Below are positions 1 to 32,949 of a stretch of DNA of 33,221 nt, in pieces. Origin of the DNA: Spirochaetota bacterium. Its GTDB lineage: Bacteria > Spirochaetota > GWE2-31-10 > JAFGQB01. How positions within the stretch are numbered: the first letter of the stretch is position 1; each line of letters begins with the position of its first letter. The DNA is taken from the NCBI GenBank assembly GCA_046703745.1, contig JBJKSS010000446.1:1-33221 (forward strand), in the 5' to 3' direction. The notes below the pieces were generated by a model, which searched no databases, was not told the DNA's origin, and saw nothing but the letters and a program-made list of their open reading frames with translations. Position numbers and translations under genes: made by a program.

Positions 1-41
1 AAATGGACGGGCATGACACCGGGGGAATATCATAAATTCAA
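1..41 (+). repeat. Left copy of the 41-nt direct repeat (AraC gene tail) bounding the AT-rich island
   Basis: aaatggacgggcatgacaccgggggaatatcaTaaattcaa versus 14845-14885 aaatggacgggcatgacaccgggggaatatcaGaaattcaa. The repeat may extend upstream beyond the window edge. Confidence 0.85.
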
Positions 42-48
42 ACAATAA
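1..48 (+). CDS. 3' end of an AraC/XylS-family transcriptional regulator gene (partial; continues upstream of the window)
   Basis: Frame 1 reads KWTGMTPGEYHKFKQ*. This is the same HTH tail as the ORF at 14593..14898 (KKWTGMTPGEYQKFNRQV*). Nt 1-41 equal 14845-14885 except for one base. Confidence 0.7.
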   Translation, partial: KWTGMTPGEYHKFKQ

Positions 49-252
49 TTTTAAGTAATCTATGGTAATCAAAATAAATCACATAAATTATTTGTGTTTA
101 ATAATAAAATATCAATCACATATAAAACATGTTTTAGTGATTGTGTAGAGATCCGTCTTTCATTAGGCATGTTTTTTATGTTTTTGTTGGATTTTTTCAT
201 GTTTTTGGGTTAATATCAGCATGGTATAAAAATTATATTTTCAGGATCATTC

Positions 253-2676
253 ATGACAACGAAGAAAAAAGACCTGCCCTTAAACATCGGGCTGGTTTTG
301 GGAGAACTGGATGAGACATATCACAATTTAATCTGGCCTAATTTTGTAAAAATAACAAAAAATTTGAATATAAATCTTTTTTTGATAGTAGGCAGACAGC
401 TTGACTATTCGTTATATGACGAGAAAGAGCAGAATATAATTTACAACTTAATTGATAAAAAAATATTTAACGGATTAATTTTATTTTCCGGTTCTTTGGG
501 ACATTTTATTGATTATAAAGAATTGGAAATTTTCATGGAGAGATTTAAAGACATTCCTGCAGTAGGGATCAATGAAAACATAAAGGGAATTCCCAGTGTT
601 TTAATGAATAGCAAAAAAGGGGAAGAAGAACTGCTGGAGCATTTAATCCATGAGCATGGATATTTAAATTTTGCTTTTATCAGGGGGCCTGAAGGTCATC
701 AAGCAGCTATTGCCAGGTATGATGTCTTTATGGAAACATTAAGAAAATATCATATTCCGCTCGACAATACCCTAGTCTCTACTCCTGGAAATTTTCTTAT
801 GAATTCAGGTGAAAGTGCAGTTAAAGAATTTTTAAGCACAGACAAAAAAATCGATGTGATTGTTTCTGCAAATGATGAAATGGCCATTGGTGCAATCAAT
901 GAATTGAATCGGAACGGCATCAAGGTTCCGGACGATATTGCTGTAGTCGGGTTTGATAATACCGATGAAGCCATTTTTTTTTCGCCGCCGTTAACTACAG
1001 TTAAACAACCGTATTATGAATTGTGCAAGAAAGCGATTGATTTGCTTATGCGTATTATTACCGGGCAAGATATTCCTCAAAATATTGAGGTTCATACAAA
1101 ACTTGAAATTAAACGTTCCTGCGGCTGCGATTATCCCGGCATAAAAAAAATAAAAATGATCAAGGCCATGCAAAATTTATCCCTCCCGGTAGAATATTCT
1201 GCTCTTGTAGAAAACAAAAGTCAGATCATTAATGAGACCCTTGAAATGTCAAATATATCAAGTTACTTGAAACAACAGGTTAGTGACTGGTTTGAAAAAA
1301 TAATCGATGAAATTACTGTCAAAATGAAAAACAAAAATGAAATGAATTTCCTTCTTTATTCATTTATTAATTTCCCGGAAAATATAATTTTTGATTTTTA
1401 TGATTATGAAATACTAAAAGAAATTCTGGATATTTTTATTTCTAATTGTTCAAGATATTTGCATAATCCTGAAGACAAAAAAGCTCTGGTAAATATGCAG
1501 AAAATCGGAAATATTTTGATTGATGAGACAATGAGTCAGAATAAGGCGCTGGAAAGCGTACATTTTAGGAAAAATTCCAAAAAACTCCAGAAAACGAGCC
1601 AATATTTTATTACTTCTTTAAATATTGAAATGCTTACTCGAAGGCTTGCAGAAGAACTTCCACAAATTGGTATTAATAGTTGTTATATCATTCTCTATGA
1701 AAGCAGGGTAGTAAGAAAATCAAAATATGACTGGAGTATTCCACAAAATTCACGTCTCATTTTTGCTTTAGAATCAGGTAAAAATATCAATCTTGATCCG
1801 AATGAGGTAAGATTCAATACTTACGAATTATTACCCGATAAGTTTTTTAAGCAAACAGAAAATATGAATATGATATTAATGCCATTACTATATAAAAATG
1901 AACACTTTGGCTTTATCCTTTTTGAGTTGGGTTCCATAAGAAATCTAATGTATGAGACAATCAGGGCTCAAATCAGTACTACTATTAAAAAAGTTAAGGA
2001 CCACGAGGAAGATAAATATTCTGCATTGGGAATGCTTTTTGGCGGAATCTCTCATGAAATACTCAATCCTTTGGGAGGAGTTTTTGCTCCACTGGAAAAT
2101 TTAAAAATCTGCCTCGAAGAAAGCAATATTAATAATCACGATAAAATCAGTACTTACATAGACAGAATGGAAAACAATCTATTAAGAATAGAAAACCTGA
2201 TCAAAGGATTGCGCACCTTATATCATGACCGGGTGCTTATAAAATCGGAGATAAATCTTTTAGAGGCTGTGAATATTGCAGCAGACAATATAAAAAATGC
2301 GTTGAAGCCATTGATCGAACTAAAACTGAATATTCCCGCAGATACTTATGTAATGGCTAACCACCAGGCACTTGTTATTATTGTTCAAAATTTATTAAAA
2401 AACGCCAATGATGCAATCCCCAAATCAGGTTGTATTGAAATTAATTATAAAACAAAAAGTAATTTTAAATACCTTGTAATAAAAGATAATGGAATCGGGA
2501 TAGAGAATAGCAGGCTCAATGATATTTTTAATGCATTTTATACAACAAAAGAAGTGGGGAAAGGCACAGGTCTGGGCCTGTACCTGGTAAAAGATCTCGT
2601 ATTGAGAATGAACTGGGAAATAAACGTAACCTCAGCAGTAAATCATGGGTCAGAATTTATTTTGGTGATTAAATAA
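253..2676 (+). CDS. Soluble hybrid sensor histidine kinase: LacI/PBP1-type sugar-binding domain, GAF-like middle region, HisKA/HATPase_c
   Basis: 807-aa ORF with AGGA about 7 nt upstream of the ATG. The N-terminal ~290 aa carry the LacI-family ligand-binding signature (VSANDEMAIGAINELNRNGIKVPDDIAVVGFDN...PPLTTVKQP). There is no LacI HTH and no obvious TM or signal segment. The C-terminus has H-box GGISHEILNPLGG, N-box NLLKNANDAI, G1 IKDNGIGI, and F/G2 FNAFYTTK..GKGTGLGLYLV. Confidence 0.85.
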   Translation: MTTKKKDLPLNIGLVLGELDETYHNLIWPNFVKITKNLNINLFLIVGRQLDYSLYDEKEQNIIYNLIDKKIFNGLILFSGSLGHFIDYKELEIFMERFKDIPAVGINENIKGIPSVLMNSKKGEEELLEHLIHEHGYLNFAFIRGPEGHQAAIARYDVFMETLRKYHIPLDNTLVSTPGNFLMNSGESAVKEFLSTDKKIDVIVSANDEMAIGAINELNRNGIKVPDDIAVVGFDNTDEAIFFSPPLTTVKQPYYELCKKAIDLLMRIITGQDIPQNIEVHTKLEIKRSCGCDYPGIKKIKMIKAMQNLSLPVEYSALVENKSQIINETLEMSNISSYLKQQVSDWFEKIIDEITVKMKNKNEMNFLLYSFINFPENIIFDFYDYEILKEILDIFISNCSRYLHNPEDKKALVNMQKIGNILIDETMSQNKALESVHFRKNSKKLQKTSQYFITSLNIEMLTRRLAEELPQIGINSCYIILYESRVVRKSKYDWSIPQNSRLIFALESGKNINLDPNEVRFNTYELLPDKFFKQTENMNMILMPLLYKNEHFGFILFELGSIRNLMYETIRAQISTTIKKVKDHEEDKYSALGMLFGGISHEILNPLGGVFAPLENLKICLEESNINNHDKISTYIDRMENNLLRIENLIKGLRTLYHDRVLIKSEINLLEAVNIAADNIKNALKPLIELKLNIPADTYVMANHQALVIIVQNLLKNANDAIPKSGCIEINYKTKSNFKYLVIKDNGIGIENSRLNDIFNAFYTTKEVGKGTGLGLYLVKDLVLRMNWEINVTSAVNHGSEFILVIK

Positions 2677-2682
2677 AGCCGA

Positions 2683-4071
2683 TTATTTGTACTTATAAAA
2701 TTGATCCTTTTTTATTTTGGTACTTTTTACGGCTTCTGTTACATTCCCGTGAAAATGGTTTAATATTTCCTTTATGACAGATGCCTTGATGTCGGAAAGT
2801 GTTAGCTTTTTATTTATCATGCTGTCCTTAATTATTCTAATAACATCGCTAAACGGCTGATCATCCTCCTCCATTCCTTCCAGCAAAAATTCTATATTTT
2901 CCAGCTTTATTTCATTTTCATTCTTAGACCGGATAACTATTTGCCTGATTATGTTTTCCATCTCTCGTATATTACCCGGCCATTTATAGTTTGTTAACCT
3001 GTGTATAACCAAATCACTAATGCCGGGCTCTTCGATTCCATATTTGTCAGAATGTTTTTTTATAAAATGCTTTAATAAATCAGGAATATCCTGGCGTCTT
3101 TCTCTAAGCGATGGCAAATTTATTGGAAATTCACCAATACGATAAAATAAATCCTTACGAAATAATTTTTCATGAACAGCATTTTTTAAATTGACATTGG
3201 TCGCACAGATTAAATGAAAATCCACATCCATAGGTACAGTGTCACCCAGGCGGTAAACTTTTTTTTCCTGAATAACCCTGAGAAGTTTTGCCTGTAAGTC
3301 CGGTTTTAATTCACCTATTTCATCCAGAAATAAAGTGCCGTTGTTTGCCAGCTCAATTTTCCCCGGCTTATCAACTCTGGCATCTGTAAAAGCTCCCTTT
3401 TTATAGCCAAACAATTCACTTTCAAATAATGAATCCGGAACAGCTGCACAGTTTATTTTTATAAATGGTTGATTTTTTCTCTCGCTAAGATCGTGGATTA
3501 ATTTGGCAGCTAATTCCTTTCCTGTGCCTGTTTCACCGGTAATCAGAACATTGGCAAATCTTTCTGAAACCAATTGAATATTATCAAAAACTGCTTTAAG
3601 CCCCTTATCCAGCCCGATAATATCATACTGATATCCTAACTGTTGCTTTAATACTTCATACTTATATGTGGACAAATTAAACTCATTATCCTTCTTTATG
3701 TCGCTTTTACAGGCTGCTACAGCTTTATCTATGGCATATTTTAAAATTTTTAATTTCAATGGCTTTTCAACAATTTTATCAATCAAACCCCTGTTAATTA
3801 CTGTTTCTAAAAGTGGTTTGTCTATGTATGCACTAAAAAGAATACCGTAATTATAGGCGTTTATTTTTTTTGCTTCAATCAATAACTCCAGCCCTGATAA
3901 CCCTGGCATTTTATAGTCAACAATTAATATTTCATAATTTTTTTTTCGGAGTTCGTTCAGTGCATCAGCAGGGGAAGAAAATGTAGTTAAACTGAATGAT
4001 TTAAAATATTCTTCTATATCCAGCAGAAGAGATTTTTCATCATCAACAACCATTATATTAATATCTTTCAT
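2683..4071 (-). CDS. Sigma-54-dependent response regulator (NtrC family: REC, AAA+ sigma-54 interaction domain, Fis-type HTH)
   Basis: REC domain: IMVVDDEKS...DYKMPGLSGLELL. Walker A: ITGETGTGKELAA. GAFTGA-loop variant: KKGAFTDA. Also FLDEIGEL, RVIQEKKVYRLGD, LFYRI and LPSLRERRQDIPDL. C-terminal HTH: GNVTEAVKSTKIKKDQFYKY. Convergent with the kinase, with a 6-nt gap. Confidence 0.9.
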   Translation of the reverse strand: MKDINIMVVDDEKSLLLDIEEYFKSFSLTTFSSPADALNELRKKNYEILIVDYKMPGLSGLELLIEAKKINAYNYGILFSAYIDKPLLETVINRGLIDKIVEKPLKLKILKYAIDKAVAACKSDIKKDNEFNLSTYKYEVLKQQLGYQYDIIGLDKGLKAVFDNIQLVSERFANVLITGETGTGKELAAKLIHDLSERKNQPFIKINCAAVPDSLFESELFGYKKGAFTDARVDKPGKIELANNGTLFLDEIGELKPDLQAKLLRVIQEKKVYRLGDTVPMDVDFHLICATNVNLKNAVHEKLFRKDLFYRIGEFPINLPSLRERRQDIPDLLKHFIKKHSDKYGIEEPGISDLVIHRLTNYKWPGNIREMENIIRQIVIRSKNENEIKLENIEFLLEGMEEDDQPFSDVIRIIKDSMINKKLTLSDIKASVIKEILNHFHGNVTEAVKSTKIKKDQFYKYK

Positions 4072-4293
4072 ACAATATTCGCCCTAAAATTGAAAAAAGA
4101 TAGTTAAATACCTTGTGGTTATCTAAAAAAAAATTTTAAGATAGGCACAGCATGCTGCATTATTTTCATTCAATCTTTTAAAAAGCGTTTCATTATTCAT
4201 TAATTAATTTTATTTATATATCATATTTATAATAATTATATAACAAAAATAATTAACTATTTTCTAAAAAATAGAAATTATTGTCTAATTTTT

Positions 4294-4322
4294 AGATATT
4301 TTCTATCAGTCAGAAAATATCT
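4294..4322. promoter_or_regulatory. Perfect 11-bp inverted repeat (AGATATTTTCT-N7-AGAAAATATCT); candidate enhancer (UAS) for the NtrC-type activator
   Basis: Read directly from the sequence. It lies about 75-100 bp upstream of the -24/-12 element, the usual distance for bEBP binding sites. Confidence 0.4.
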
Positions 4323-4396
4323 GCCCGCCTGTCCCATGTATGTATTTTATTATATTTCCATGAGTTATGTTCGTTTTTAATTGTTTAATTTTTTTG

Positions 4397-4412
4397 TGGC
4401 ACAATTATTGCT
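4397..4412 (+). promoter_or_regulatory. Sigma-54 (-24/-12) promoter facing the biosynthetic operon
   Basis: TGGCACAATTATTGCT fits the consensus TGGCAC-N5-TTGCW exactly, with GG and GC correctly spaced. It sits in the spacer between the divergent activator gene and the operon. The predicted transcription start is near 4423, giving a ~255-nt leader. Confidence 0.75.
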
Positions 4413-4677
4413 CAACAGGAGTCGGATATAAGAATAAGATATAGATAAATTTTTGTTTCATTTGTCAGTTGTTTCTGGCAGCAAAAACTATCATATCGTT
4501 TTTAGTACATTCTTTCAGAATAAATAATTTATTAATGCAGGGGAAAAATGAGCAAAGACAAATTGGGCTGCTTTGGAAATTCAGGATAAAGTTGTTTTGT
4601 TTTGCAAAAAAATTTTATAGGCGCTATTACAAACTATCTCATATTGATTAGAATTAAACAAAGACAAGGACATTATT

Positions 4678-6054
4678 ATGCAAGGGGAATGCAGGGAGTA
4701 TCCATTATTTCCGTCACAAAAGAGGATTCTAAAAAATATTAATCCTCCTCATCACTGGAATATATCATATATGTTGTTTTTGAAAAGCAGATACAACGCA
4801 TCTGTTTTAAAAAAGGTTTTAGATGATATTGTTGGCAGACATGAAGTTTTTAAATTGCGGTTCATTAAGAAAGGGAATAATTTTGTACAACAGTTTGACC
4901 CGGCACGCACGAATAATTATATTTTTATTGAAACAGAAGTAACTGAAAGTAATAATCAAGAGAAAATCATTCATGATATCATGGAGAGCGTACAGGAATC
5001 TATTAATATTTTTGACGGTCCTTTACTCAGTGTTGGCTTGATTAAAACAGGCATGGGCGATCATCTTTACGTTGTGGTACATCATCTCATTTCGGATGCT
5101 TATTCCTTCAAATTGCTTATATATGATCTGATTTATGGTTATATGGAATTATTAAAAAATAATAAAAAATATACTCCTCCGAAAACTGATTCATTCATTG
5201 AAGCAATTGAAAACCTTTATGCATATTCCAACGGCAAGTTGATTGACGAAGAGGTTAAGTACTGGAAAAAAGTGCTGGGCACGAAATCGAAAGAGCTGCC
5301 CATGGATAATAAAATCACAAGAGAACAAAAAACAGAAATATATAATTCGAATATCAACGAAGCATTATTGGATGAGAAAAAATATGAAGAACTGAAAAAT
5401 ATTTTAAAAAAATTTAAAATCAGTGAATATGAATTTTATTTGTCAATTTTAGGATTAAGCATCTGTGACTGGAAAAAAGATACCACTGCTTTTGTAAAGC
5501 TGGCTTATCATGGCAGAAGTAATTTTAATGGAAGATTGAATTTACACAGGACCCTCGGGCCTTTCTGGGTAACATATCCTGTTGTTTTGGATACAGTAAA
5601 CAGGGATAATACCATCGAAAGAGTCAGAGTAATAAAAGATATGCTGGAAAATATTCCTGGCAAAGGGCGTGGGTATGAAGTTTTAAAGGAAATACTTCTG
5701 GAAAATGATAGGGAATTCATCGAGCTTGACACTACTGTACCCAATATACTATTCAATTATTACGGCAAAATGAATGAAAAAACTCTAATTGATCCGGAGT
5801 TTGGCAATCTGTCCCCGTATTTTCAGGATTTCAACAGGCACAAAAAAGCTCATTGTGACTTTACTCTTATATTTAATTTAAGGGAAATAGATAACTGTCT
5901 AAGATTGCAACTAATTTATAATAAAATTGAATTTAGCGATGATAATATGAATGTTCTGTTTAACTGTTTTCAGAACAATTTATATATATCAATAAATGAA
6001 TTAAAGAATAAATATTTGGATTTAACCCAAATTGTGCTTAAAACCCCGGGTTAA
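4678..6054 (+). CDS. Stand-alone NRPS condensation-superfamily protein, epimerization (E)-domain-like
   Basis: AAGGA lies 8 nt upstream of the ATG. Motifs line up with the GrsA E domain as I recall it. HHWNISYMLF matches HHWNQSYMLY. VVHHLISDAYSFKLL matches HHLVVDGISWRIL. AYHGRS...RTLGPFWVTYPVVLD matches EGHGRE...RTVGWFTSQYPVVLD. IPGKGRGYE matches IPNKGIGYE, and ILFNYYGK matches INFNYLGQ. Confidence 0.85.
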   Translation: MQGECREYPLFPSQKRILKNINPPHHWNISYMLFLKSRYNASVLKKVLDDIVGRHEVFKLRFIKKGNNFVQQFDPARTNNYIFIETEVTESNNQEKIIHDIMESVQESINIFDGPLLSVGLIKTGMGDHLYVVVHHLISDAYSFKLLIYDLIYGYMELLKNNKKYTPPKTDSFIEAIENLYAYSNGKLIDEEVKYWKKVLGTKSKELPMDNKITREQKTEIYNSNINEALLDEKKYEELKNILKKFKISEYEFYLSILGLSICDWKKDTTAFVKLAYHGRSNFNGRLNLHRTLGPFWVTYPVVLDTVNRDNTIERVRVIKDMLENIPGKGRGYEVLKEILLENDREFIELDTTVPNILFNYYGKMNEKTLIDPEFGNLSPYFQDFNRHKKAHCDFTLIFNLREIDNCLRLQLIYNKIEFSDDNMNVLFNCFQNNLYISINELKNKYLDLTQIVLKTPG

Positions 6055-6193
6055 TTTTAATAAAGCATTGCAAGATTAAATCGGGGTATTTTATAGTGAT
6101 GGCAAACGCATAGTAGTTTTGTCATTATAACTGCATGAATGACTTGTTTGTTGCCTGTTGTTAAAAATATATTAGTGAGGGGCATAATATTAA

Positions 6194-7267
6194 ATGACTA
6201 TTGCATCATTTCCTAAAATGGATGACGGATCCCGTAATCCATATCTGTTTTTGCTAAAAAACAGCTTAGAAAAAAACAAGCTGAAGATTGAGTCTTCCAA
6301 TCCAAATCATTTGTCATTTAAATGGCTAATCAAAAACAGGAAAAAAGTAAGCATATTACATTTGCACTGGATACAATATCATTACATCAATATAGATAAA
6401 AAACGACTTTCAGTCAGGCTGTTATTAAATTTTATTTTAAATCTATTTGTTGCACGTATAATGAGTTATAAAATAGTTTGGACCATGCATAATGTTCATC
6501 CGCATGAAAACAAGTACCCTGTAATTGATTTTTTAATCAGATTAGTGCTGACCAAATTAACAAATGCTATCATAACTCACTGTAATTATGGGAAAGAATA
6601 TCTTTTGAAAAAATATAAACGAAAGGAAAATGTTGCTGTTATACATCATCCTAATTATATTAACGTTTATCCGGATCGGATATCCAGGGAGAGTGCCAGA
6701 CAAAAGTTGGGAATCCCACTCGGGAGTTTGGTATTTTTATTTCTGGGGGAAATTCGAAATTATAAAGGGCTAAATTCTCTCATTGAGACATTCAAAGCAT
6801 ATAAAAATAATAATTCACATTTGATAATTGCAGGGCATCCGCTTTTTTCGTGGACAGAAAACGAATTGGTTAAACTGATTAATAATGATAGACGAATCAT
6901 CGCCAATTTTATGTTTATTCCCGATAATGATTTACAAGTTTATTTTAAAGCCTCTGATGTTATGATACTCCCATTCACAAATATCACAATGTCAGGATCG
7001 TTGTTACTTGGAATGTCTTTTGGTAAGCCGATTGTTGCACCGGCTATTGGCGGCATTAATGAATACATAAAGGATGATTCAGGTATTTTATATTATCCGG
7101 GAGACACAAAAAATCTTCTTGAGGCTTTACAAAAATGTGAAAATCAAGACCTGTCCGGCATGGGTTATAACGGGTATCAATCCGTGAAAAATTATACATG
7201 GGATAATTTGGCTGAAAAAATAATCCAGATTTATACATCATTTATGAAAGAGAAAAAAACGATATGA
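6194..7267 (+). CDS. Glycosyltransferase, GT-B fold (GT4 / group 1 family)
   Basis: 357 aa. The C-terminal half is typical of group-1 GTs (FLFLGEIRNYKGLNSLIETF, ASDVMILPF...SGSLLLGMSFGKPIVAPAIGGINEYI). The N-terminal half has the HLHW / VWTMHNVHPHE pattern common in polysaccharide GTs. Confidence 0.75.
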   Translation: MTIASFPKMDDGSRNPYLFLLKNSLEKNKLKIESSNPNHLSFKWLIKNRKKVSILHLHWIQYHYINIDKKRLSVRLLLNFILNLFVARIMSYKIVWTMHNVHPHENKYPVIDFLIRLVLTKLTNAIITHCNYGKEYLLKKYKRKENVAVIHHPNYINVYPDRISRESARQKLGIPLGSLVFLFLGEIRNYKGLNSLIETFKAYKNNNSHLIIAGHPLFSWTENELVKLINNDRRIIANFMFIPDNDLQVYFKASDVMILPFTNITMSGSLLLGMSFGKPIVAPAIGGINEYIKDDSGILYYPGDTKNLLEALQKCENQDLSGMGYNGYQSVKNYTWDNLAEKIIQIYTSFMKEKKTI

Positions 7268-8415
7268 AAATTGCATTGGTTAGCAGGTATTATAATAAAC
7301 ATCAGGGTATTCCGCATGATGTTGTAGAATTAGCAGAAAGATTTGTGAAAAAACATGAAGTCCATGTTTTTTCACAGACATGGCAGTGTGGAGGCGGTAC
7401 GAATATCATCTTCCATAAAATACCTGCGATTGCACCGAAGAGCTTTATTAATGAGCTTTTCTTCTTTTTTATGGCGGGCATAATCCTTAGAAAACATAAG
7501 TTTGATGTGGTCAATTTTCATGACCCATGCTGGTACCCAGGTGGAATTTTTACCTGTCATGCTTTCCCTGAAGCAGGCATTAAAATCATAAAGGAATTTA
7601 ATAAAAAAATAAACATGGGCATTAATCCCCTTTTATTCCTGCCGTTTACACTTTTATATCCCATATCAAACTTTAATATGAAATCAAGTAAAGTCAAAAA
7701 AATAATTTCTGTCTCCAGCTTCATAAAAGAAAAGATCAAAGAAATATTACACAGATCAGAGAATACGATTGAGGTTATTCCAAACGGCATTGATATTGCC
7801 AGATTTAACCCTGGTATAAAAAGAATATATAAATCAGACATTATGAAAAAGCACAATTTGAAAGATAGTGACTTTATCATATTGTTTGTTGGATATTATC
7901 ATTTGAGAAAAGGGTTACATCTTTTGATTCAGGCCATGTCTTTGATAAAAAATAAAAACGCAAAAGTGCTGGTTGTAGGTGATGATGATTTCGGCAAGAA
8001 ATATATTCATTCTATTATCAGAGAGCATGGGCTGGAAAACAGGATAATATATGCCGGAGATCAGCCTGAAGTTTACCGGTATTTTTCTGTAGGAAATCTG
8101 CTTGCCCTGCCGACTCTTTACGAGCCTTTTGGAAATGTTGTTTTAGAAGCCATGGCATGCGGATTGCCTGCTATTGTTTCAAAATTGGCGGGAGTCTCGG
8201 ATTTGATAGAGGATGGTAAAAATGGATTTTTAATTAATGATCCAGCCAATACAAAAGAAATCGCGCTAAAAATACAAACCATAATGGATAATAAAAATCG
8301 ATACAAACAAATTGCTGATAATGCATGCAGCACTGCTCAAAAGTATACATGGGATATCATAGCAGTGCAAACACTTTTACTCTTTGAAAAAACAGTATCC
8401 AGAAAAAATAAATAA
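7264..8415 (+). CDS. Glycosyltransferase family 4 (group 1)
   Basis: ATGA overlap with the upstream gene indicates translational coupling. It has the classical GT4 EX7E region YEPFGNVVLEAMACGLPAIVSKLAGVSDLIEDGKNGFL. Confidence 0.85.
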   Translation: MKIALVSRYYNKHQGIPHDVVELAERFVKKHEVHVFSQTWQCGGGTNIIFHKIPAIAPKSFINELFFFFMAGIILRKHKFDVVNFHDPCWYPGGIFTCHAFPEAGIKIIKEFNKKINMGINPLLFLPFTLLYPISNFNMKSSKVKKIISVSSFIKEKIKEILHRSENTIEVIPNGIDIARFNPGIKRIYKSDIMKKHNLKDSDFIILFVGYYHLRKGLHLLIQAMSLIKNKNAKVLVVGDDDFGKKYIHSIIREHGLENRIIYAGDQPEVYRYFSVGNLLALPTLYEPFGNVVLEAMACGLPAIVSKLAGVSDLIEDGKNGFLINDPANTKEIALKIQTIMDNKNRYKQIADNACSTAQKYTWDIIAVQTLLLFEKTVSRKNK

Positions 8416-8488
8416 CCAGAATTTTGATTCACTATCGAGAGTCGAAATTCTGTTAATAATATAAATTTTAAAACAAAGGATGATTTTT

Positions 8489-9214
8489 ATGTCAGACAAC
8501 AAAATATACGAAGAAGTTGAAAAGTACTTCGATAAATGTGCACCACTGTACAGTAAAATTCATATTGATATGCCTTCAATTGATAACTGGCAGTTTGGTA
8601 ATTTGTTTAATGAGATGGATTTAACGAAAACCCCGACAGTACTGGATCTTGGAACAGGAGACGGGAATTTACTTCTTCATATAGGAAAATGGAACAGGGA
8701 ATGCAAATTGATCGGCATTGATCTTTCTGAAAAAATGATTGAAGTGGCAAGGGATAACCTTTTAAAGGAGGGGCTGAGTGCCAGATTTTTAAAGGCAAAT
8801 ATGGAAAAAATCGATCTTGAAACTGATTCCATAGATTATGTAGTCAGTAATGGAGCTCTTCATCATGTAAAGGACAAACAATCGCTGTATTCCGAAATAT
8901 TCAGGGTTTTAAAAAAAGGCGGCAAGCTGATTGTTATTGATGGATTTGATATTCTTGATGATGAGTACAGAAATTTACAAAAAGAACTAAAGGAAAAAGA
9001 TCCGGTTTTCTGGGTAAGCTATATAGATGATAACAACAGGTATCAGGAGTTTCTCAAAAAAGAAACCCCTGCGGATCTTATAGATCATCCCGTTGAATAT
9101 CATTTGTCACCTTTTCAATTAAAGAGGTTATTGGAGGATATTGGTTTCGTAAATGTCAGGATTATAGCAAGTCCTCTCAATTTTGCCATATATATAGGTG
9201 AGAAGTCTGTTTAA
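8489..9214 (+). CDS. Class I SAM-dependent methyltransferase
   Basis: Motif I VLDLGTGDGNL, then GALHHV, then LKKGGKLIVID. The ORF track starts at 8480, but the ATG at 8489 has AAGGA 8 nt upstream, so it is the more likely start. Confidence 0.85.
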   Translation: MSDNKIYEEVEKYFDKCAPLYSKIHIDMPSIDNWQFGNLFNEMDLTKTPTVLDLGTGDGNLLLHIGKWNRECKLIGIDLSEKMIEVARDNLLKEGLSARFLKANMEKIDLETDSIDYVVSNGALHHVKDKQSLYSEIFRVLKKGGKLIVIDGFDILDDEYRNLQKELKEKDPVFWVSYIDDNNRYQEFLKKETPADLIDHPVEYHLSPFQLKRLLEDIGFVNVRIIASPLNFAIYIGEKSV

Positions 9215-9254
9215 AAAATGTGCATATGCATAAAATAGCAGAAGGATAAACTTA

Positions 9255-10331
9255 ATGCAAAAAATACTTCCGGTGAATCTGGATACAAAAATTACAACCG
9301 AAATTTACAATCATATCCGCCTGGCTGCTATTCTCAGTGAGGAAGGTTTCCTTCCCTGGTTTATCGAGAGATTTATTGTATTATACATGGATGAAAACTA
9401 TTTTTTCTCCAATTATTATATGTACGGCTCGCTTTCTGCAAGATATGTATATGATGAGGTTTTATTGTCGTTCCCCGTATCATGTAAAAGCAATATTATT
9501 GATGAAATAAAAAAACATATAGACAACCATGGGTATGTACAAATTTTATGTGATAAGTATTATATAGAAGGAAGTACATTTTATCAAAAATCACACTTTT
9601 TTCACGATCTTATGCTAATAGGGTATGCAGATAATCCATCCTTGTTTTTCTTCGTAGACTTGAATATTAATAAAAAACTCACCGGTGTGCACTCTATCAG
9701 CGAAGGAAGTTTGCTAAGTTCCTGGGATGCAACATTAAAATTCATAAAAGGAAAAAAGCCGGAAGAATTATATAATCTGTCTTTTATGCAGTTTGATTTT
9801 CCTGTTTCGGCGTTTTATTTACGCAAGGAAAATACGAGAAAATTACCCAATCTTAACTATATCTATTATTCACTCCAGTATTGCCAGAATAATCCTGTTT
9901 ATCAGACAAACTTTTGTGGATTAACATCAATAAACAGGATTGGTTCAGCCATATACCGGATATACTATGAAAATCTTTATCAACGGCTTCAGGAGGAAAA
10001 ATATAAAAATATTTTGCTGGAACATGATGGCGTTATCCTTATTAGCCTTAAAAGGCTCATAGAAAATAAAATGGGGATGCATTTCAGGCTTAATTACTTG
10101 ATGGGGAAAAAAATGATTGCAGAAGATTTACTTCTTCTGGATAAAATGTATCTTGTAAAAGAAAATCTGGAATATGCATTTAATTGCCTGGTAAAATATG
10201 CCTGTACATTTGATTTTGAACTTCTTGAAGAAGCGATGACTATTTTCAAAGAAACACAAAAAATTGATGCTGAAAATCTGGATAAAAGCCTGCAGCTTGT
10301 AGGCAAGACCATACAACAAGGTTATTGCTAA
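9255..10331 (+). CDS. Hypothetical protein of unknown function (possible papain-fold / BtrH-N-like acyltransferase relic)
   Basis: 358-aa ORF embedded in the operon with short gaps on both sides. I recognise no family with confidence. The only hint is an HFFHDLMLIGYAD segment, resembling the His strand of C39/BtrH_N-type papain-fold proteins. No matching N-terminal Cys is evident. Confidence 0.7.
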   Translation: MQKILPVNLDTKITTEIYNHIRLAAILSEEGFLPWFIERFIVLYMDENYFFSNYYMYGSLSARYVYDEVLLSFPVSCKSNIIDEIKKHIDNHGYVQILCDKYYIEGSTFYQKSHFFHDLMLIGYADNPSLFFFVDLNINKKLTGVHSISEGSLLSSWDATLKFIKGKKPEELYNLSFMQFDFPVSAFYLRKENTRKLPNLNYIYYSLQYCQNNPVYQTNFCGLTSINRIGSAIYRIYYENLYQRLQEEKYKNILLEHDGVILISLKRLIENKMGMHFRLNYLMGKKMIAEDLLLLDKMYLVKENLEYAFNCLVKYACTFDFELLEEAMTIFKETQKIDAENLDKSLQLVGKTIQQGYC

Positions 10332-10356
10332 GCAAGAAAAGGAGAAAAATCTGAAC

Positions 10357-12753
10357 ATGAATAATAACAGGGACTGCCTTTTTTGCCTGGAAACCGGCCA
10401 TAAAAACAAATTGGAAGATCTGGCAAATAAAGAAAATATTTTTACTTCACACATAATTCTAGCAATGATTGATGTTCTCCTTTCCCGTTACTGGTTTCAG
10501 GAGAAAATAAGCATGGGCATTGTCACTTCTAATTCCCTTCTTCCTGTTACGACAAGCCTGGTTGAAAATGACGGATTTTTAACCCTATGCCGTAATCTGG
10601 CAAACAAATTGAATAATATCAATGAAACTTTCAGAGAAAATACGAGCAGTCACGAGCAGTCAGAATATTCCGAGCCGGATGCATGCAATGTGATATTTAC
10701 CGATTGTGATGAGCAGACCGAGATGGGAACTATTCTGAAATGGAGTCAAGATAAAATTGTTTTTTTTATTTCTTATAAAAATAACCAGATTCAGATAAGA
10801 GTAAAAAATGAAATTAAAGCCCGGTTTTTTCCTGAATTCGAACTGTTCATAAATCATTTTATTACATTTTTAAATGTAATTCTTGTTGACCCGCTTACTC
10901 CCATCCATGAAATTGAAATAATTTCCGGGCGGGAAAAAGATACTCTTATCCATCAATTCAATGATACCCATGTTGGCCGGGATGAAACATGCCTGGTGCA
11001 GATGTTTCAAAAAATTGTGGATAAATATCCACGTAACGATATGATTGTGTTTGGCGGTCAGAGAATATCCTACGAATTTATTAACAAAAAATCCAATCAG
11101 CTTGCCCGGTATTTACGGGAAACGTTGAGGGTCAGACCCGGCGTAATTGTGGCTTTACATACGGATGTTTCTGTTGAGATGGTTATTGGAATATTCGGCA
11201 TATTAAAATCCGGGGGCATATATTTGCCCCTGTCACCCGATAACCCGGAAGAAAGGAATGAGCTCATTACACATGAGAGTAAGGCAAAAATAATCCTTCA
11301 AAACAGCAAACATAATGTATGCTTTCATGACAAAACTGTACTCGATATTTCTCTCGGTTATGAGGATATTTACACAGGGGATGACTCTAATGTTGAAGTT
11401 ATCCATCAGAGTTCTGATATTGCATATATCATTTATACTTCCGGAACCTCCGGGAAACCCAAAGGTGTCATGATAAAACACGGGGGCATAGCCAATTCAC
11501 TTCTGTGGAGAATAAATGAATACGGGTTTACAACCAGCGATACCATTTTGCAGCTATTCTCCCATGTTTTTGACGGATTCATTACCAGTTTTTTTACTCC
11601 TGTCCTGTCTGGTGCAACTTTGATTCTTACGAATAAAGAACAAATCACTGATCCGGGATTTATGACGGAAACCTTACGGCTAAACAGGGTCACTTCTTTT
11701 TTATGTATACCTCCTCTTTTTCAGGCAATCCAGGAGCTAATGGATGTTGAAATTGCAAAAAATATAAGATGCATTACATTAGCCGGAGATCAAGTTGACA
11801 AAAAAAGCATTGAGAATTTCAATAAAAAATACCCGTGGATAGAAATTATTAATGAATACGGCCCTACGGAGAATAGTGTTGTTTCTACTATCAAACGTAA
11901 TTTACAGGATGACGAAGTGGTCACCATAGGGAAACCCATTGCCAATACCAGAGTATTCATATTAAATCAAAAAGGTAAACTTGTGCCTGTTGGAGCTCCG
12001 GGCGAAATATGTTTATCAGGAAGAGGTCTGTCCCCGGGATATCTTAACCGTCCTGATCTGAATGAAAAATATTTTGTTCCAAATTCATACATTGACAATG
12101 AACCAATGTATAAAACAGGTGACCTGGGGCGCTGGCGATTCGACGGAAACATAGAATTTCTTGGCAGATTGGATTTTCAGGTTAAAATCAGGGGATTCCG
12201 GATAGAATTAAATGAAATCGAAAATTCCATTTTACAACATCCAAAAATTGATGAAGTGGTAGTCGTTGCATCCGGAAAATCCAGTCAAAACAGATATTTG
12301 TGTGCATTTTACAAAAACAAGAACAATGAAGACGCCAGTAATTTACAGGATTGGTTGAAAACGAAACTTCCTGACTATATGATACCGTCTTTTTTTATGC
12401 AGATGAGCACTTTCCCCCTGACAGATACCGGCAAAACAGACAGGAAAAAACTTGTTGAAACAGGAAATGATTTTGTCACAAACAAAAACACGGAAAAACC
12501 CTTAACCGGGATAGAGTCTCAAATTTGTGAAATATGGAAGCAGCTCCTAAAAACTGATCGGATAGGAACGGACGATGATTTTTTTTCACTGGGTGGTGAT
12601 TCGATTTCGATAATACAGATGCAGGTAGCCGTTGAGAAATTGTTTAACATTCGGTTAAGTGTCAAAAAACCGGAGGAATATTCCACTATTAGATCGTTGT
12701 CGGGGATTGTCGGCAATATTCTGAAAAAAGCGCCAAAGGAGTCTTCCTGTTGA
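10357..12753 (+). CDS. NRPS module: C-terminal lobe of a condensation domain, adenylation domain, peptidyl carrier protein; no TE domain
   Basis: The N-terminal ~190 aa resemble only the second half of a C domain (TSHIILAMIDVLLSRYWFQEKISMGIVTS) and have no HHxxxDG motif. A-domain motifs: A3 AYIIYTSGTSGKPKGV, A5 NEYGPTE, A7 YKTGDLGRW, A8 GRLDFQVKIRGFRIEL, A9 LPDYMIPS, A10 TGKTDRKKL. PCP motif: FFSLGGDSISIIQM. Confidence 0.9.
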   Translation: MNNNRDCLFCLETGHKNKLEDLANKENIFTSHIILAMIDVLLSRYWFQEKISMGIVTSNSLLPVTTSLVENDGFLTLCRNLANKLNNINETFRENTSSHEQSEYSEPDACNVIFTDCDEQTEMGTILKWSQDKIVFFISYKNNQIQIRVKNEIKARFFPEFELFINHFITFLNVILVDPLTPIHEIEIISGREKDTLIHQFNDTHVGRDETCLVQMFQKIVDKYPRNDMIVFGGQRISYEFINKKSNQLARYLRETLRVRPGVIVALHTDVSVEMVIGIFGILKSGGIYLPLSPDNPEERNELITHESKAKIILQNSKHNVCFHDKTVLDISLGYEDIYTGDDSNVEVIHQSSDIAYIIYTSGTSGKPKGVMIKHGGIANSLLWRINEYGFTTSDTILQLFSHVFDGFITSFFTPVLSGATLILTNKEQITDPGFMTETLRLNRVTSFLCIPPLFQAIQELMDVEIAKNIRCITLAGDQVDKKSIENFNKKYPWIEIINEYGPTENSVVSTIKRNLQDDEVVTIGKPIANTRVFILNQKGKLVPVGAPGEICLSGRGLSPGYLNRPDLNEKYFVPNSYIDNEPMYKTGDLGRWRFDGNIEFLGRLDFQVKIRGFRIELNEIENSILQHPKIDEVVVVASGKSSQNRYLCAFYKNKNNEDASNLQDWLKTKLPDYMIPSFFMQMSTFPLTDTGKTDRKKLVETGNDFVTNKNTEKPLTGIESQICEIWKQLLKTDRIGTDDDFFSLGGDSISIIQMQVAVEKLFNIRLSVKKPEEYSTIRSLSGIVGNILKKAPKESSC

Positions 12754-12806
12754 TAAATCAAAATTTGTTTTGAATTAAATTATAATTATCGGGAGAAAGA
12801 TTAGAA

Positions 12807-14564
12807 ATGAAAAAAAGAAATTACATTGGTCTGGCTACAACGTTCCATGATAGTGCAATAGCAATTATTAATCCGGAGGGCAAAGTTGTTTTTGCAGAAG
12901 CAAGTGAACGTTATATGCAGGATAAGCGGGGGTATAACCAGATACCTGACCATATATTCAGGTCGGGGAAATTAATCAAAAAATATTGTGATCCCGATGC
13001 TGATTTTGTGTTGTCCCAGTCATGGTTAAAGCCGGATCAGGAAGCCGAAATAAAAGGCTTGAAGGAAATGAGAGAAAACAATGACATGATTCTAAAACAA
13101 ATTGGGCAGAATGATTTTTATATACGCAGAGCTATAAGCAATATGGAGTATCTTGCAACATTTATGACGCATAATATCCACAACGCAGGGCATGCTCTAA
13201 AAAGGCAACTTGGCATCAATAAAAAATTTCATAATGCCAATATTATTACGAAGCATTACGACCATCATCTTGCACATGCCGCGACAGCATGTTTTACCAG
13301 TCCGTTTGATGAAGCGGCCTGTCTTATCATAGACGCCGGTGGAGAAGCCGAGAAAAGTTATGGAATATTTCATTATAGTAATGGGAAAATAACAGAAGTC
13401 GATGCTTCTCCGAAAAAAGCAACCGGAAGCCTGGGTATATTTTTTTCATGGGTCTGCCAGACCTGTGGTTTTGACCTGATGGCCAATGAAGAATGGAAAG
13501 TAATGGGTCTGGCTCCTTATGGCAAGCTTGACAATAAGATATACAAAATTTTTAAAGATTTCATCAAGATCGAAGGTTTTACAATACCGCCCTGGAGCTT
13601 TGACCATATCCGGAATTTTTTAAAAAAATGTTCTGAAATAGAACCGACGGATGATATGACGCCTTATGATGTAGCAGATACAGCCTATACAGGGCAAATG
13701 GTATTTGAAGAATTATATTTCGACCTTATTAATAAGGTACATGCATTGGGGCTTTCTGAAAATCTGGTCATGGGCGGAGGCTGCAGTCTTAATTCTACTG
13801 CAAATGGGAAAATAACGGAGAATACCCCGTTTAATAAAGTGCATATATACAGCGCACCGGCCGATGATGGGAATGCATTGGGTGCAGCATGGTTATCCTA
13901 TTTTGAGGATCATCCTGAAAAGCGCATAACCCCGGAGCTGTTTACTCCATATCTGGGCTCGACTATTAAAACAGAGTCTTTTAAAAACTTTAAACGTTTC
14001 GCAAAAATAAAGAATATGAAAGAACATAATGGTGATGTACATATCCGGGCCGCAGAATTGTTGGCACAAAATAAAATTATCGGCTGGGTGCAGGGAGCTG
14101 CCGAGTTTGGCCCGCGCGCACTGGGTAACCGTTCCATTCTCGCCAGTCCTGCATATCCTGATATTAAGAATCAAATTAATGCGCGGGTGAAATTCCGTGA
14201 AGAGTTCAGGCCCTTTGCACCATCCATCCTACATGAACACGGTCCGGAATATTTTATAAATTATGAAGAATCTCCATATATGGAACGTACATTAAAATTT
14301 TATGATGAAGTCAAGGATAAAATACCCGGGGTAGTACATGCAAACAATTCCGGCAGGCTGCAAACAGTAAAGCGTGAGTGGAACGAAAGATATTACGACC
14401 TGATTAATCATTTTTATAAATTGACAGGTATCCCTATATTATTGAATACCAGCTTTAACATAATGGGTAAGCCAATTATACATTCCATAGAAGATGCTCT
14501 GGCATTTTTTTATACCACGGGTCTCGATGCACTTGTGGTTGAAGACATTATTATAGAAAAATAA
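12807..14564 (+). CDS. Carbamoyltransferase, NodU/CmcH/TobZ family
   Basis: 585 aa with GGAGA upstream. N-terminus IGLATTFHDSAIAIINPEGKVVFAEASERY, then HHLAHAATACFTSPF, GGGCSLNSTANGKI and APADDGNALGAAW. The C-terminal domain has GPRALGNRSIL and FNIMGKPII. Confidence 0.9.
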   Translation: MKKRNYIGLATTFHDSAIAIINPEGKVVFAEASERYMQDKRGYNQIPDHIFRSGKLIKKYCDPDADFVLSQSWLKPDQEAEIKGLKEMRENNDMILKQIGQNDFYIRRAISNMEYLATFMTHNIHNAGHALKRQLGINKKFHNANIITKHYDHHLAHAATACFTSPFDEAACLIIDAGGEAEKSYGIFHYSNGKITEVDASPKKATGSLGIFFSWVCQTCGFDLMANEEWKVMGLAPYGKLDNKIYKIFKDFIKIEGFTIPPWSFDHIRNFLKKCSEIEPTDDMTPYDVADTAYTGQMVFEELYFDLINKVHALGLSENLVMGGGCSLNSTANGKITENTPFNKVHIYSAPADDGNALGAAWLSYFEDHPEKRITPELFTPYLGSTIKTESFKNFKRFAKIKNMKEHNGDVHIRAAELLAQNKIIGWVQGAAEFGPRALGNRSILASPAYPDIKNQINARVKFREEFRPFAPSILHEHGPEYFINYEESPYMERTLKFYDEVKDKIPGVVHANNSGRLQTVKREWNERYYDLINHFYKLTGIPILLNTSFNIMGKPIIHSIEDALAFFYTTGLDALVVEDIIIEK

Positions 14565-14592
14565 ATTTGAATAAATAATTGCGGGCAAAACG

Positions 14593-14898
14593 ATGCATAT
14601 AATAAACACGATGCTTTCAAAAGGCGAGAGGCCGTCAATAGAAAAGGCCGCAGCAGAGTTTGCAATGAGCGTCAGGAACCTCCAGAATAAACTGAAGGAG
14701 GAGAAGGCTTCATATCAGGGTATCCTTGAAAATTTGAGGAAGAAAATCGCAGTGGAATACCTGAAAAACCCGGGTGCATCGATCTGTGAAATCACGTTCC
14801 TCCTCGGGTTCTCGGAGCAGAGCTCATTCAACCATGTATTCAAAAAATGGACGGGCATGACACCGGGGGAATATCAGAAATTCAACCGGCAGGTTTAG
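14593..14898 (+). CDS. AraC/XylS-family HTH domain only (about 100 aa); probably a 5'-truncated gene remnant
   Basis: It encodes just the C-terminal dual-HTH region (SIEKAAAEFAMSVRNLQNKLKEE...ICEITFLLGFSEQSSFNHVFKKWTGMTPGEY). There is no ligand or dimerisation domain and no convincing RBS. The ORF begins exactly at the composition break. Confidence 0.6.
   Translation: MHIINTMLSKGERPSIEKAAAEFAMSVRNLQNKLKEEKASYQGILENLRKKIAVEYLKNPGASICEITFLLGFSEQSSFNHVFKKWTGMTPGEYQKFNRQV
14845..14885 (+). repeat. Right copy of the 41-nt direct repeat (AraC gene tail)
   Basis: 40 of 41 bases identical to nt 1-41. Confidence 0.85.
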
Positions 14899-17824: not shown

Positions 17825-17826
17825 TT

Positions 17827-18630
17827 ATGAAAAGCCTGCTCAACGCTTTGCATGAGGGAAGACTCGTGGAACTTCCAACGAACAACAAGGAAGAAGTTCT
17901 CGAATACCTCGCCCTGCTCATAGAAGCCATACCGGATATCGGTACTGGCGAAGATCTTGTCAAGGCGATTAATTTGAGGGAATCCCAGGCAAACACCGCA
18001 CTCGGTTTGGGCGTGGCATGCCCGCATGTGAGGACGAAGCAGGAAGGGGAATTATTGTGCGCCGTCGGATGGTCGCCTGAAGGCATCGATTACAACGCCC
18101 CTGACGGCAAAAGGGTGCATCTTGTAATAATGTATTATATTCCCGAATCACAGAAAAACTCCTATTTGAAGGAGCTCTCCGGGCTTGCAAAGGCCATAAA
18201 GGAAACAAACGGCATACAAATTTCTTCCAATATAATTGACATTCAAAGTATAAGAAACAAGCTTCTCGACTGGGTGGAGCTGGCCATAGACAAGGCGATC
18301 CCGGACTCAAAGGCGAGGATGATCAAGCTTGAAGAAAAAAATGCCGCCATGGAAAACCTTGTCAAACCACCGGGCGTTATGGAAGCATTAAAATCAAAAA
18401 TAGCCGTGATTCCCTTTTCGGTGTTCATCCTCGATGACATGAAATTTTATGTGCTTTCAAAAAATCAGGAGATTATCGATGTGCTTGAGCAGACAAAAGA
18501 CATTGCCAGACAGTTTAACGGCGGCGGCGTTTTCAATTACAGGGATTACCAGATATCTGTTGTTTCAAATTCCCTGTATTCAAAAAACAGGATGGTGTAC
18601 GATTGTATAGCCGTTAAATTCAGCCTGTAA
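17827..18630 (+). CDS. PTS EIIA type-2 (PtsN/EIIA-Ntr-like) domain protein with an uncharacterised ~110-aa C-terminal extension
   Basis: It starts 2 nt after the mgtA stop codon, with GGAGAA upstream. The N-terminal ~150 aa have the EIIA-2 layout and a candidate phospho-His motif (ALGLGVACPHVR). I do not recognise the C-terminal part. Confidence 0.7.
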   Translation: MKSLLNALHEGRLVELPTNNKEEVLEYLALLIEAIPDIGTGEDLVKAINLRESQANTALGLGVACPHVRTKQEGELLCAVGWSPEGIDYNAPDGKRVHLVIMYYIPESQKNSYLKELSGLAKAIKETNGIQISSNIIDIQSIRNKLLDWVELAIDKAIPDSKARMIKLEEKNAAMENLVKPPGVMEALKSKIAVIPFSVFILDDMKFYVLSKNQEIIDVLEQTKDIARQFNGGGVFNYRDYQISVVSNSLYSKNRMVYDCIAVKFSL

Positions 18631-22892: not shown

Positions 22893-23654
22893 ATGACGGC
22901 ATTTCTAAACATTCTAAAAATATTGATTGCCCTTGTTGTTTTTTCAATGCTGACATCCTGCAGCAACGAACCGGAAATACATAAAGCTGCGGGAAAAGGC
23001 GATCTTGTCAAGCTCGAAGAGCTGATAAAGGCTGGCACATCCATTGATGCTACGAATGATTATAATGAAACGCCTTTACATATAGCCGCTGCAAAAAGCA
23101 GGTCCGAAGCGGTCAGGCTGTTGTTGTCAAAAGGCGCTGATATAAATGCCAGGGATGAGTTTGGCAACACTCCCCTTATAAATGCTGTTTCTGTAATCTC
23201 GAACAGAGAATCCCAGGAAGAAGTTATAAAAATACTGCTTGATAACAAAGCCGATATTCATGCAAAAAACAGGCATTACGGAGAAGTCGCATTGCACAGG
23301 GCTGCAATGAACGGGCATAAGGAAGCGGTTATTTATTTTTTAAACAACGGTATTGATCCTGATATAAGGGATAAAAAGGGCCAAACGCCATTATATGACG
23401 CAAGTTTGTGGGGACATCTCGATATAGTTAAAATCCTGATTGAAAAAAAGGCGGATATCAATGCTGTCAATATTGATGGTAATACTCCACTGCATGGTGC
23501 GGCGCTGTTTGACCGTCTTGATGTGGCGGAGTATTTGATAAAGGCAGGTGCCGATATAAAAAAGACTAACAATAAAAATGAAACACCAATGGATGTTGCA
23601 AAAAATGCAGAGAGCAAAAAAATAACGGAACTGTTAAAAAATCGTAAACAATGA
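22893..23654 (+). CDS. Ankyrin-repeat lipoprotein
   Basis: Signal peptide with lipobox LTSC, followed by about 6 ANK repeats (NETPLHIAAAKSRSEAVRLLLSKGADINARDEFGNTPL...). Confidence 0.85.
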   Translation: MTAFLNILKILIALVVFSMLTSCSNEPEIHKAAGKGDLVKLEELIKAGTSIDATNDYNETPLHIAAAKSRSEAVRLLLSKGADINARDEFGNTPLINAVSVISNRESQEEVIKILLDNKADIHAKNRHYGEVALHRAAMNGHKEAVIYFLNNGIDPDIRDKKGQTPLYDASLWGHLDIVKILIEKKADINAVNIDGNTPLHGAALFDRLDVAEYLIKAGADIKKTNNKNETPMDVAKNAESKKITELLKNRKQ

Positions 23655-27087: not shown

Positions 27088-27231
27088 TTGCTATTGCCAA
27101 AAATTTCATGAAAGAATATATTTGATACACAATAATCCTTCAATTAAAGCCGTCATTATTTAATGAGGAGAATGCTTAAAGCGGTTTTTAAGACAGACAA
27201 TTGTCGGTCATTATTGTGACATCAATAGCAA
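27088..27231 (+). other. larB-larC spacer with two nested 9-bp perfect complementary pairs (candidate structured RNA leader or MITE-like insert)
   Basis: TTGCTATTG (27088-27096) pairs with CAATAGCAA (27223-27231). CACAATAAT (27128-27136) pairs with ATTATTGTG (27210-27218). GACAATTGTC copy 5 lies inside. Confidence 0.4.
27196..27205. repeat. GACAATTGTC palindrome, copy 5 (36 nt upstream of the larC start)
   Basis: Read directly from the sequence (aagacaGACAATTGTCggtcat). Confidence 0.9.
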
Positions 27232-27240
27232 GGATAAAAA

Positions 27241-31651: not shown

Positions 31652-31725
31652 GCCAATGAAAAAAACATGATTATTAAAAAATCTTGTCAAGAATTGTCCT
31701 GTATAAAAATGGAGAAAAAATATCA

Positions 31726-32322: not shown

Positions 32323-32327
32323 TTTTT

Positions 32328-32370
32328 ACCGTAACGCCGGATCGTTGAGGAAAGATTCCAACTGGCATGA
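32328..32370 (+). repeat. Orphan copy of the DUF2442-gene 3' end (direct repeat of 32908-32949)
   Basis: accgtaacgccggatcgttgaggaaagattccaactggcatga versus accgtaacagggatcgttgagggaagattccaactggcatga. They differ by a few substitutions and a 1-nt indel that breaks the frame. Confidence 0.8.
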
Positions 32371-32465
32371 AAATTGAAAGATTTTTGTGATATTATGTAA
32401 AACATAATAAATTTGTTACTATGTTTAAAATATGTTATTATTAAAAAAAGATTAGGTTTGAACAA

Positions 32466-32949
<484 letters not shown>

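Follow-up and report, generated by a model that had tools for sequence, protein, structure and literature searches.

An AT-rich biosynthetic gene block bordered by a displaced AraC-type gene fragment upstream of mgtA in a Spirochaetota genome

Introduction

The closest documented layout to the locus described here is that of the element e14, which lies between icd and the icdC pseudogene in the chromosome of Escherichia coli K-12 (PMC13626634). When we re-measured this element in strain MG1655, the duplicated 3' end spanned 165 nucleotides (nt) with 92.7% identity and flanked 15.2 kb of DNA including intE and xisE. The locus studied here belongs to a Spirochaetota bacterium and is contained in a stretch of 33,221 nt (assembly GCA_046703745.1, contig JBJKSS010000446.1, positions 1 to 33,221, forward strand), hereafter named the window. 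It consists of an AT-rich insert of about 14.5 kb (42-14580), delimited on the left by the point where two AraC-type gene tails diverge and on the right by the start of AraC homology, and it is followed by mgtA. The comparison with e14 and with phage 21, which is also found in icd, is close in several respects: the insert measures about 15 kb and sits in the 3' portion of a gene for a protein, one border carries a displaced piece of the C-terminal coding region that keeps the orientation of the gene, and the duplicated copies are nearly but not fully identical. At the other border, icd is intact and has its 3' end within the insert, whereas here only the last 15 codons of the gene are visible. 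The element e14 carries intE, xisE and phage genes, in contrast to the AraC-bracketed insert, in which no recombinase or phage genes were found. The displaced AraC fragment would measure about 305-318 nt, about twice the length of its e14 counterpart.

A regenerated target gene accompanied by a displaced fragment is also the principle on which the Islander approach relies, and direct repeats of a few tens of nt are typical scars of attachment (att) sites (PMC4383910). Islander islands resemble our locus in having a gene fragment in direct orientation at one end of a block of foreign composition and the matching gene end at the other. Their targets are transfer RNA (tRNA) or transfer-messenger RNA (tmRNA) genes and a tyrosine integrase is required, whereas the target here is a protein-coding AraC gene and no integrase is present. 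Because this defining recombinase is absent, we do not file the locus in the integrase-island family and retain only the likeness of the footprint.

In a Campbell-type single crossover, circular DNA inserts through a cloned internal fragment of a gene, as in insertional gene disruption. Such an event predicts two break points delimiting an internal gene segment, a left copy without its native tail and a right copy without its 5' part, and it needs no dedicated recombinase. Unlike a construct of this kind, the insert has no vector or plasmid functions, and a natural source for a circle carrying an AraC fragment of about 305 nt is hypothetical.

Two AraC-type gene ends at the borders of the insert

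The first-pass annotation of the window had reported a 41-nt repeat with a single differing base, located at the ends of two AraC-type reading frames on the plus strand. Nucleotides 1-41 and 14845-14885 are indeed identical at 40 of 41 positions, in direct orientation, with a T at position 33 on the left and a G at 14877 on the right as the sole difference; the exact stretch common to both copies is thus 1-32. When up to three mismatches were allowed, the 41-mer matched only these two sites in the window, and a second match occurred in none of 100 dinucleotide-preserving shuffles, so that the repeat is far beyond chance. The 32-mer shared by both copies was not found in genome, metagenome or viral collections. 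Both copies are read in frame as AraC-type C-termini, in agreement with the annotation. The left frame (1-48, plus strand) encodes KWTGMTPGEYHKFKQ before its stop codon and thus ends in HKFKQ, and the right frame encodes KWTGMTPGEYQKFNRQV and ends in QKFNRQV. Within the window, the left gene is represented by its last 15 codons and stop codon, its body lying beyond the window edge, and 41 nt of the left repeat copy are therefore visible. A weak match at 1-45 was also obtained by tblastn with AraC homologues of about 340 amino acids (aa).

The 13-codon peptide shared by the two copies is encoded identically at all 11 synonymous sites. A conserved peptide motif therefore cannot explain the identity of the repeats, which argues for recent common descent of the two copies. 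Past position 41, local alignment of the tails scored 22, while shuffled sequences averaged 23.4, so that no significant similarity is left. The two AraC tails part exactly at the onset of AT-rich DNA, and their final four to six codons are wholly different. An extension of the repeat to 56 nt with 86% identity was considered and rejected as homology, because 7 of the last 15 positions are mismatched. Over these first 56 nt, each mismatch is an A or T on the left against a G or C on the right.

The right repeat copy is part of a longer AraC-type remnant (14581-14898, plus strand). The 101-aa open reading frame (ORF) at 14593-14898 matches only the HTH_18/HTH_AraC domain and aligns with the last ~90 residues of regulators of 280-340 aa, such as GliR and QhpR. 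Among 1.84 billion representative proteins, its best matches share 51-60% identity and are mostly 335-345 aa long, and the nearest homologues align to it through their last ~95-100 residues only (approximately 243-337). When these homologues were compared with the window by tblastn, residues 239-341 aligned to 14581-14892, and no trace of their N-terminal domain of about 240 residues was found anywhere in the window. The remnant keeps the last ~105 of ~340 codons of a regulator of the Arabinose_bd plus HTH_18 type (approximately residues 239-341), in the AraC/XylS family. The ATG at 14593 is thus an internal methionine codon, as homology already begins at 14581. An in-frame stop codon is located upstream of the remnant at 14572-14574, and no Shine-Dalgarno-like sequence was seen upstream of the ATG. 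The only homologue of the remnant recovered in a word-index search is a 119-aa ORF (42% identity) located directly downstream of an Arabinose_bd ORF, and it consequently derives from a split full-length gene. We also considered a stand-alone MarA/SoxS-like regulator, which is ruled out by the homology upstream of the ATG, the length of the closest relatives (about 340 aa) and the lack of a ribosome-binding site. Together these results support the right copy being a displaced, 5'-truncated gene fragment, as the first-pass annotation had proposed for its ~100-aa helix-turn-helix frame without credible ribosome-binding site; the start of the fragment is moved from 14593 to 14581.

A codon-usage border at the start of the remnant

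Codon usage was compared on the two sides of this truncation point. The GC content at third codon positions (GC3) is 0.30-0.37 in all nine genes located between 253 and 14564, 0.608 in the AraC remnant and 0.601 in mgtA, with a step from 0.367 to 0.608 at the right border. A leave-one-out log-likelihood ratio of synonymous codon usage gave -0.07 to -0.19 bits per codon in nine of nine insert genes, against +0.28 for the remnant and +0.24 for mgtA. The remnant therefore has the same codon usage as mgtA, and the switch takes place within the 16 nt (14565-14580) that separate the remnant from the stop codon of the last insert gene, which encodes a carbamoyltransferase and ends at 14564.

The raw GC content follows a less abrupt course. 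Windowed GC is 0.28-0.40 in the insert and mostly 0.41-0.48 to its right, which bears out the claim that the DNA between the repeats is AT-rich. However, GC climbs in two steps, from 0.32 up to ~10.3 kb to 0.38-0.40 beyond, and the strongest change-point found by entropy-based segmentation lies near 10,885, since the two insert genes at the right end have intermediate values (0.38-0.40). The predicted flip in composition exactly at 14593 therefore stands for codon usage, by GC3 as well as by the log-likelihood ratio, but not for raw GC.

The segment 42-14580 has the distinct codon usage and the sharp right border by which a horizontally acquired island is defined compositionally, with 41 nt of flank on its left. 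Apart from the AraC tail at the window edge, nothing indicates GC-type DNA on that side. In our view the locus is a genuine compositional island next to a displaced gene fragment, which is a well-known kind of feature.

Mobility genes and relatives of the flanking DNA

Sequence features that could account for the mobility of the insert were then sought. Domain content was assigned with Pfam and NCBIfam, and eight of the nine ORFs between the repeats carry regulatory or biosynthetic domains. None of the nine matched a recombinase in these databases, and neither did the three insert ORFs that were compared with PHROGs; no replication, mobilisation or partition genes were found in the insert. No tRNA or tmRNA gene was detected in the window. 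The domain and tRNA scans are thus in line with the absence of integrase, transposase and tRNA noted at first pass. Rfam gave no match at gathering thresholds, including upstream of mgtA, where no M-box or Mg2+ riboswitch was present. At the inner ends of the insert, the longest inverted match is 11 nt and the longest direct match 9 nt, within the range of shuffled sequences (mean 8.8, maximum 13). With no transposase and no terminal repeats above chance, the insert lacks the hallmarks of a transposon or of a composite element bounded by insertion sequences. Promoter and terminator scans at the insert borders were uninformative. A phage origin was considered and set aside: nine window proteins, including three encoded in the insert, were compared with PHROGs, and matches were limited to the carbamoyltransferase and the sensor kinase of the insert, the former in an auxiliary-metabolic family and the latter through generic domains, and neither was counted as phage evidence.

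The right flank starts, as expected from the first-pass annotation, with mgtA adjoining the remnant. This gene, encoding a P-type Mg2+ ATPase, and a gene encoding a phosphotransferase system (PTS) EIIA-2-like protein (together 15179-18630, plus strand) are the only part of the window conserved in its nearest relatives. In the nearest of these, the two proteins share 86% and 82% aa identity with ours (75% nt identity), and contigs of up to 256 kb have only mgtA and the EIIA-like gene in common with the window, with no AraC gene and no island. Strains of this relative have different genes upstream of mgtA, suggesting that either the spot is variable or the mgtA-EIIA pair is mobile. Its genome has 29% GC and a GC3 of 0.17-0.31, and its mgtA has a GC3 of 0.30, against 0.60 in the window. 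We also inspected 87 mgtA loci with 10-kb flanks, and none of them contained an AraC homologue of the fragment.

For the insert, only more distant relatives were found in public data. For the adenylation-thiolation protein encoded near its right end, the best public relatives share 39-44% identity and are found in ordinary multimodular loci for nonribosomal peptide synthetases (NRPS) or polyketide synthases. No orthologue of the biosynthetic cluster was found in public data, and the sensor kinase had a single match among metagenome contigs, with 28% identity. Relatives at 44% identity or less for this protein, against 86% for mgtA, would fit an accessory, imported insert.

Origin of the arrangement

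The explanation we favour, held tentatively and at a little under an even chance, is a duplication generated by a crossover, in which a 14.5-kb module was inserted in the 3' part of an AraC/XylS-family gene upstream of mgtA. A horizontally acquired biosynthetic module would have arrived on circular DNA bearing a copy of about 305 nt of the regulator gene's 3' segment (14581-14885), and one reciprocal crossover of this copy with the chromosomal gene would have inserted it. The left product would be a full-length gene with its last codons provided by the insert (HKFKQ and stop codon), and the right product a displaced, promoterless, 5'-truncated fragment retaining the original tail (QKFNRQV and stop codon). 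An integrase that acted in trans or has since disappeared may have catalysed the crossover, in the manner of e14 at icd, or else RecA may have done so in a Campbell-type event. The break points at 14581 and at 14885, which corresponds to position 41 on the left, mark out a single internal stretch of the AraC gene, which is what one crossover through a gene fragment on the incoming DNA would produce. As no recombinase remains, the insert is now probably fixed in place.

The first-pass annotation had read the locus as the scar of site-specific integration or of a Campbell-type crossover. The displaced fragment, the codon-usage contrast, the divergence of the tails at the onset of AT-rich DNA and the e14-like layout speak for this proposal, while the absence of a recombinase and the poor fit of a short att core of 41 nt speak against part of it. 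Codon usage changes at about 14581 instead of 14845; such a short core therefore does not fit, and any duplication must span about 305 nt.

Several observations weigh against a crossover-generated duplication. Its length of ~305 nt is extrapolated from the 41 nt of the left copy. Neither the insert nor the rest of the 33 kb contains an integrase, excisionase, transposase, replication or transfer gene. Both icd copies at e14 end at the same stop codon, whereas the last four to six codons differ completely here. No empty site and no second copy of the island were found in public data, where no relative is close enough to serve as a comparator. The right part of the window is itself compositionally patchy, with AT-rich genes at 22893-23654, 31684-32322 and 32644-32949. 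Finally, the tetranucleotide profile of the genome of the mgtA relative is correlated with that of the first 10.3 kb of the insert (r = 0.98), and it is not certain which side of the border is foreign.

Among the alternatives, the one that survives best is that of two recent AraC paralogues, in tandem or nearby: the AT-rich module would have been inserted, or a deletion would have taken place, in the interval that runs from the stop region of one copy to the middle of the next. The 41 nt would then be leftover identity or the result of gene conversion. AraC-family genes are commonly present in multiple copies, and this explanation requires no recombinase, which matches its absence. Documented identity is moreover limited to 41 nt, with wholly different tails after it, and a repeated DUF2442 gene tail in the right flank (see below) shows that 3' remnants of paralogous cassettes arise here without a visible integrase. 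However, the identity of all synonymous sites over 13 codons implies a very recent duplication or conversion. In addition, since the left copy diverges just where AT-rich DNA sets in, homologous genes would have had to be broken twice and independently, once in the last five codons of the first paralogue and once within the second. We consider such paralogues a possible source of the arrangement, though a rather unlikely one.

Less probable, but still to be taken into account, is an assembly artefact in which the contig ends in a repeat. In this case, an intact AraC-mgtA chromosome would coexist with a separate AT-rich replicon, locus or strain variant sharing the AraC segment, or the two would have been mis-joined at the repeat. 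The first base that tells the copies apart comes after exactly 32 nt of the window, a distance that would result from a de Bruijn unitig boundary at k = 33, and a start placed arbitrarily would fall inside the 41-nt repeat only about once in 800 times. The proteins of the window are recorded on a contig of 33,221 nt, the length of the window, which may be the whole contig, although this figure may simply come from the registration of the window in the database. An assembly graph with two edges in and two edges out would be identical for the integrated form and for the free form plus an empty site, and the tetranucleotide profile of the insert is similar to that of the mgtA relative's genome of 29% GC. 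On the other hand, the contig reads through the right copy and through the junction at 14565-14581, which is not a repeat within the window, and a mis-join would be expected at the shared 32-mer and not 264 nt upstream. The insert, having no replication genes, is also not a plausible free replicon. We hold an artefact of this kind to be unlikely.

The polarity of the transfer could also be reversed, with the AT-rich block native to a low-GC host, the AraC remnant, mgtA and downstream genes imported, and the left 41 nt a stray sequence. The closest mgtA-EIIA relative does lie in a genome of 29% GC with a GC3 of 0.17-0.31, it is syntenic with the window for the mgtA-EIIA pair only, and mgtA relatives are scattered over several phyla, suggesting a mobile gene. 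Because the genome of this 86% relative resembles the insert, the window does not prove which block is native. Nonetheless, the same GC-type AraC tail is present at the left end of the window, so that GC-type sequence stands on both sides. Moreover, the right block (18.6 kb) is mostly housekeeping-like, with LarB, LarC and mgtA, while the AT-rich block is an accessory biosynthetic cluster. For these reasons we consider a reversed polarity quite improbable.

Two further readings have little probability. The locus could represent a biosynthetic island that has no integrase of its own and targets a host regulator through a captured fragment of about 300 nt, entering by homologous single crossover like a natural suicide vector and perhaps leaving the chromosome in the same way; or it could use an unrecognised recombinase, for example a 358-aa protein encoded in the insert. 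We hold this for very doubtful. Classical site-specific integration at a short att core formed by the 41-nt repeat, by which an island at 42-14844 would have brought along the 252-nt HTH-coding stretch, is the least probable of all, since 14581-14844 has the codon usage of mgtA and not that of the insert, is in frame with the repeat as a single gene remnant, and comes with no integrase, even though the repeat is direct and repeats of a few tens of nt at gene 3' ends are typical of such events (PMC4383910).

If the crossover-generated duplication is real and measures about 305 nt, the locus would illustrate neatly how a biosynthetic island free of recombinases can occupy a protein-coding regulator gene. 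Island-mapping methods, which now rely on tRNA targets and integrases, could then benefit from it. If the contig instead breaks at the repeat, it would caution against reading repeats at contig edges as att sites. In both cases it belongs to a known type of feature and does not represent a new principle.

Gene content of the insert

The insert is predicted, from domain matches, to be a self-contained and self-regulated module for the biosynthesis of a small molecule. It begins with a putative soluble sensor histidine kinase (253-2676, plus strand), which combines a LacI-type sugar-binding fold with HisKA and HATPase domains and has no predicted transmembrane segment. A sigma-54-dependent response regulator with a receiver, an AAA+ domain and a lid is encoded next to it on the minus strand (2683-4071), divergently from the biosynthetic operon. 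The 606-nt gap that follows (4072-4677) contains a sigma-54 promoter consensus, TGGCAC-N5-TTGCT (4397-4412, plus strand), which faces the operon and is the sole zero-mismatch match in the 33-kb window. Between this promoter and the first gene of the operon, a 13-codon ORF encoding MSKDKLGCFGNSG before its stop codon (4549-4590, plus strand) is preceded by a GGGGA ribosome-binding site; it could be a leader peptide or a chance ORF.

The operon is tightly spaced and all its genes are on the plus strand. According to domain matches, it encodes a stand-alone NRPS condensation-domain protein (4678-6054), two GT4 glycosyltransferases from overlapping genes (6194-7267 and 7264-8415), a methyltransferase dependent on S-adenosylmethionine (8480-9214), the 358-aa protein (9255-10331), an NRPS adenylation-thiolation protein extended at its N-terminus by about 215 aa (10357-12753), and a complete NodU/CmcH-type carbamoyltransferase (12807-14564), which is the last gene of the insert. 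The 358-aa protein has no recognisable family: no match was found in Pfam, NCBIfam, PHROGs or PDB. It was examined as a possible hidden recombinase, which was rejected given this lack of any family or PDB match. A single-sequence AlphaFold model of this protein was unusable, with a predicted local distance difference test (pLDDT) score of 33.

Stand-alone condensation and adenylation-thiolation proteins, glycosyltransferases and a NodU/CmcH carbamoyltransferase are features that the insert shares with small NRPS-like tailoring clusters. Its regulation sets it apart from these: a sigma-54 two-component system whose sensor kinase is soluble and has a LacI fold is an unusual form of control. As the insert carries its own regulators and promoter, it forms a portable unit. 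This sigma-54-controlled NRPS-like, glycosyl and carbamoyl cargo, which is without a close public relative, may make an undescribed small molecule.

Other features of the right flank

Further along the right flank, genes encoding a LarB-like protein (AIR carboxylase family) and a LarC-like protein (nickel insertion protein) stand side by side (26335-28461). This pair would point to the synthesis of a nickel-pincer cofactor in the host-type block. Two ankyrin-repeat genes (22893-23654 and 30506-31594) are alike in DNA at the level of the repeats, and the first has an AT-rich codon usage like that of the insert. A minus-strand gene for a phospholipase D-like protein (PLDc_2), at 32950-33221, is cut by the right end of the window. 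The last ~45 nt of a DUF2442 gene (32907-32954) are repeated 579 nt upstream (32327-32375), with 92% identity over 37 nt. The upstream copy directly precedes a DUF4160-DUF2442 gene pair, forming a second, smaller cassette bracketed by a duplicated gene 3' end.

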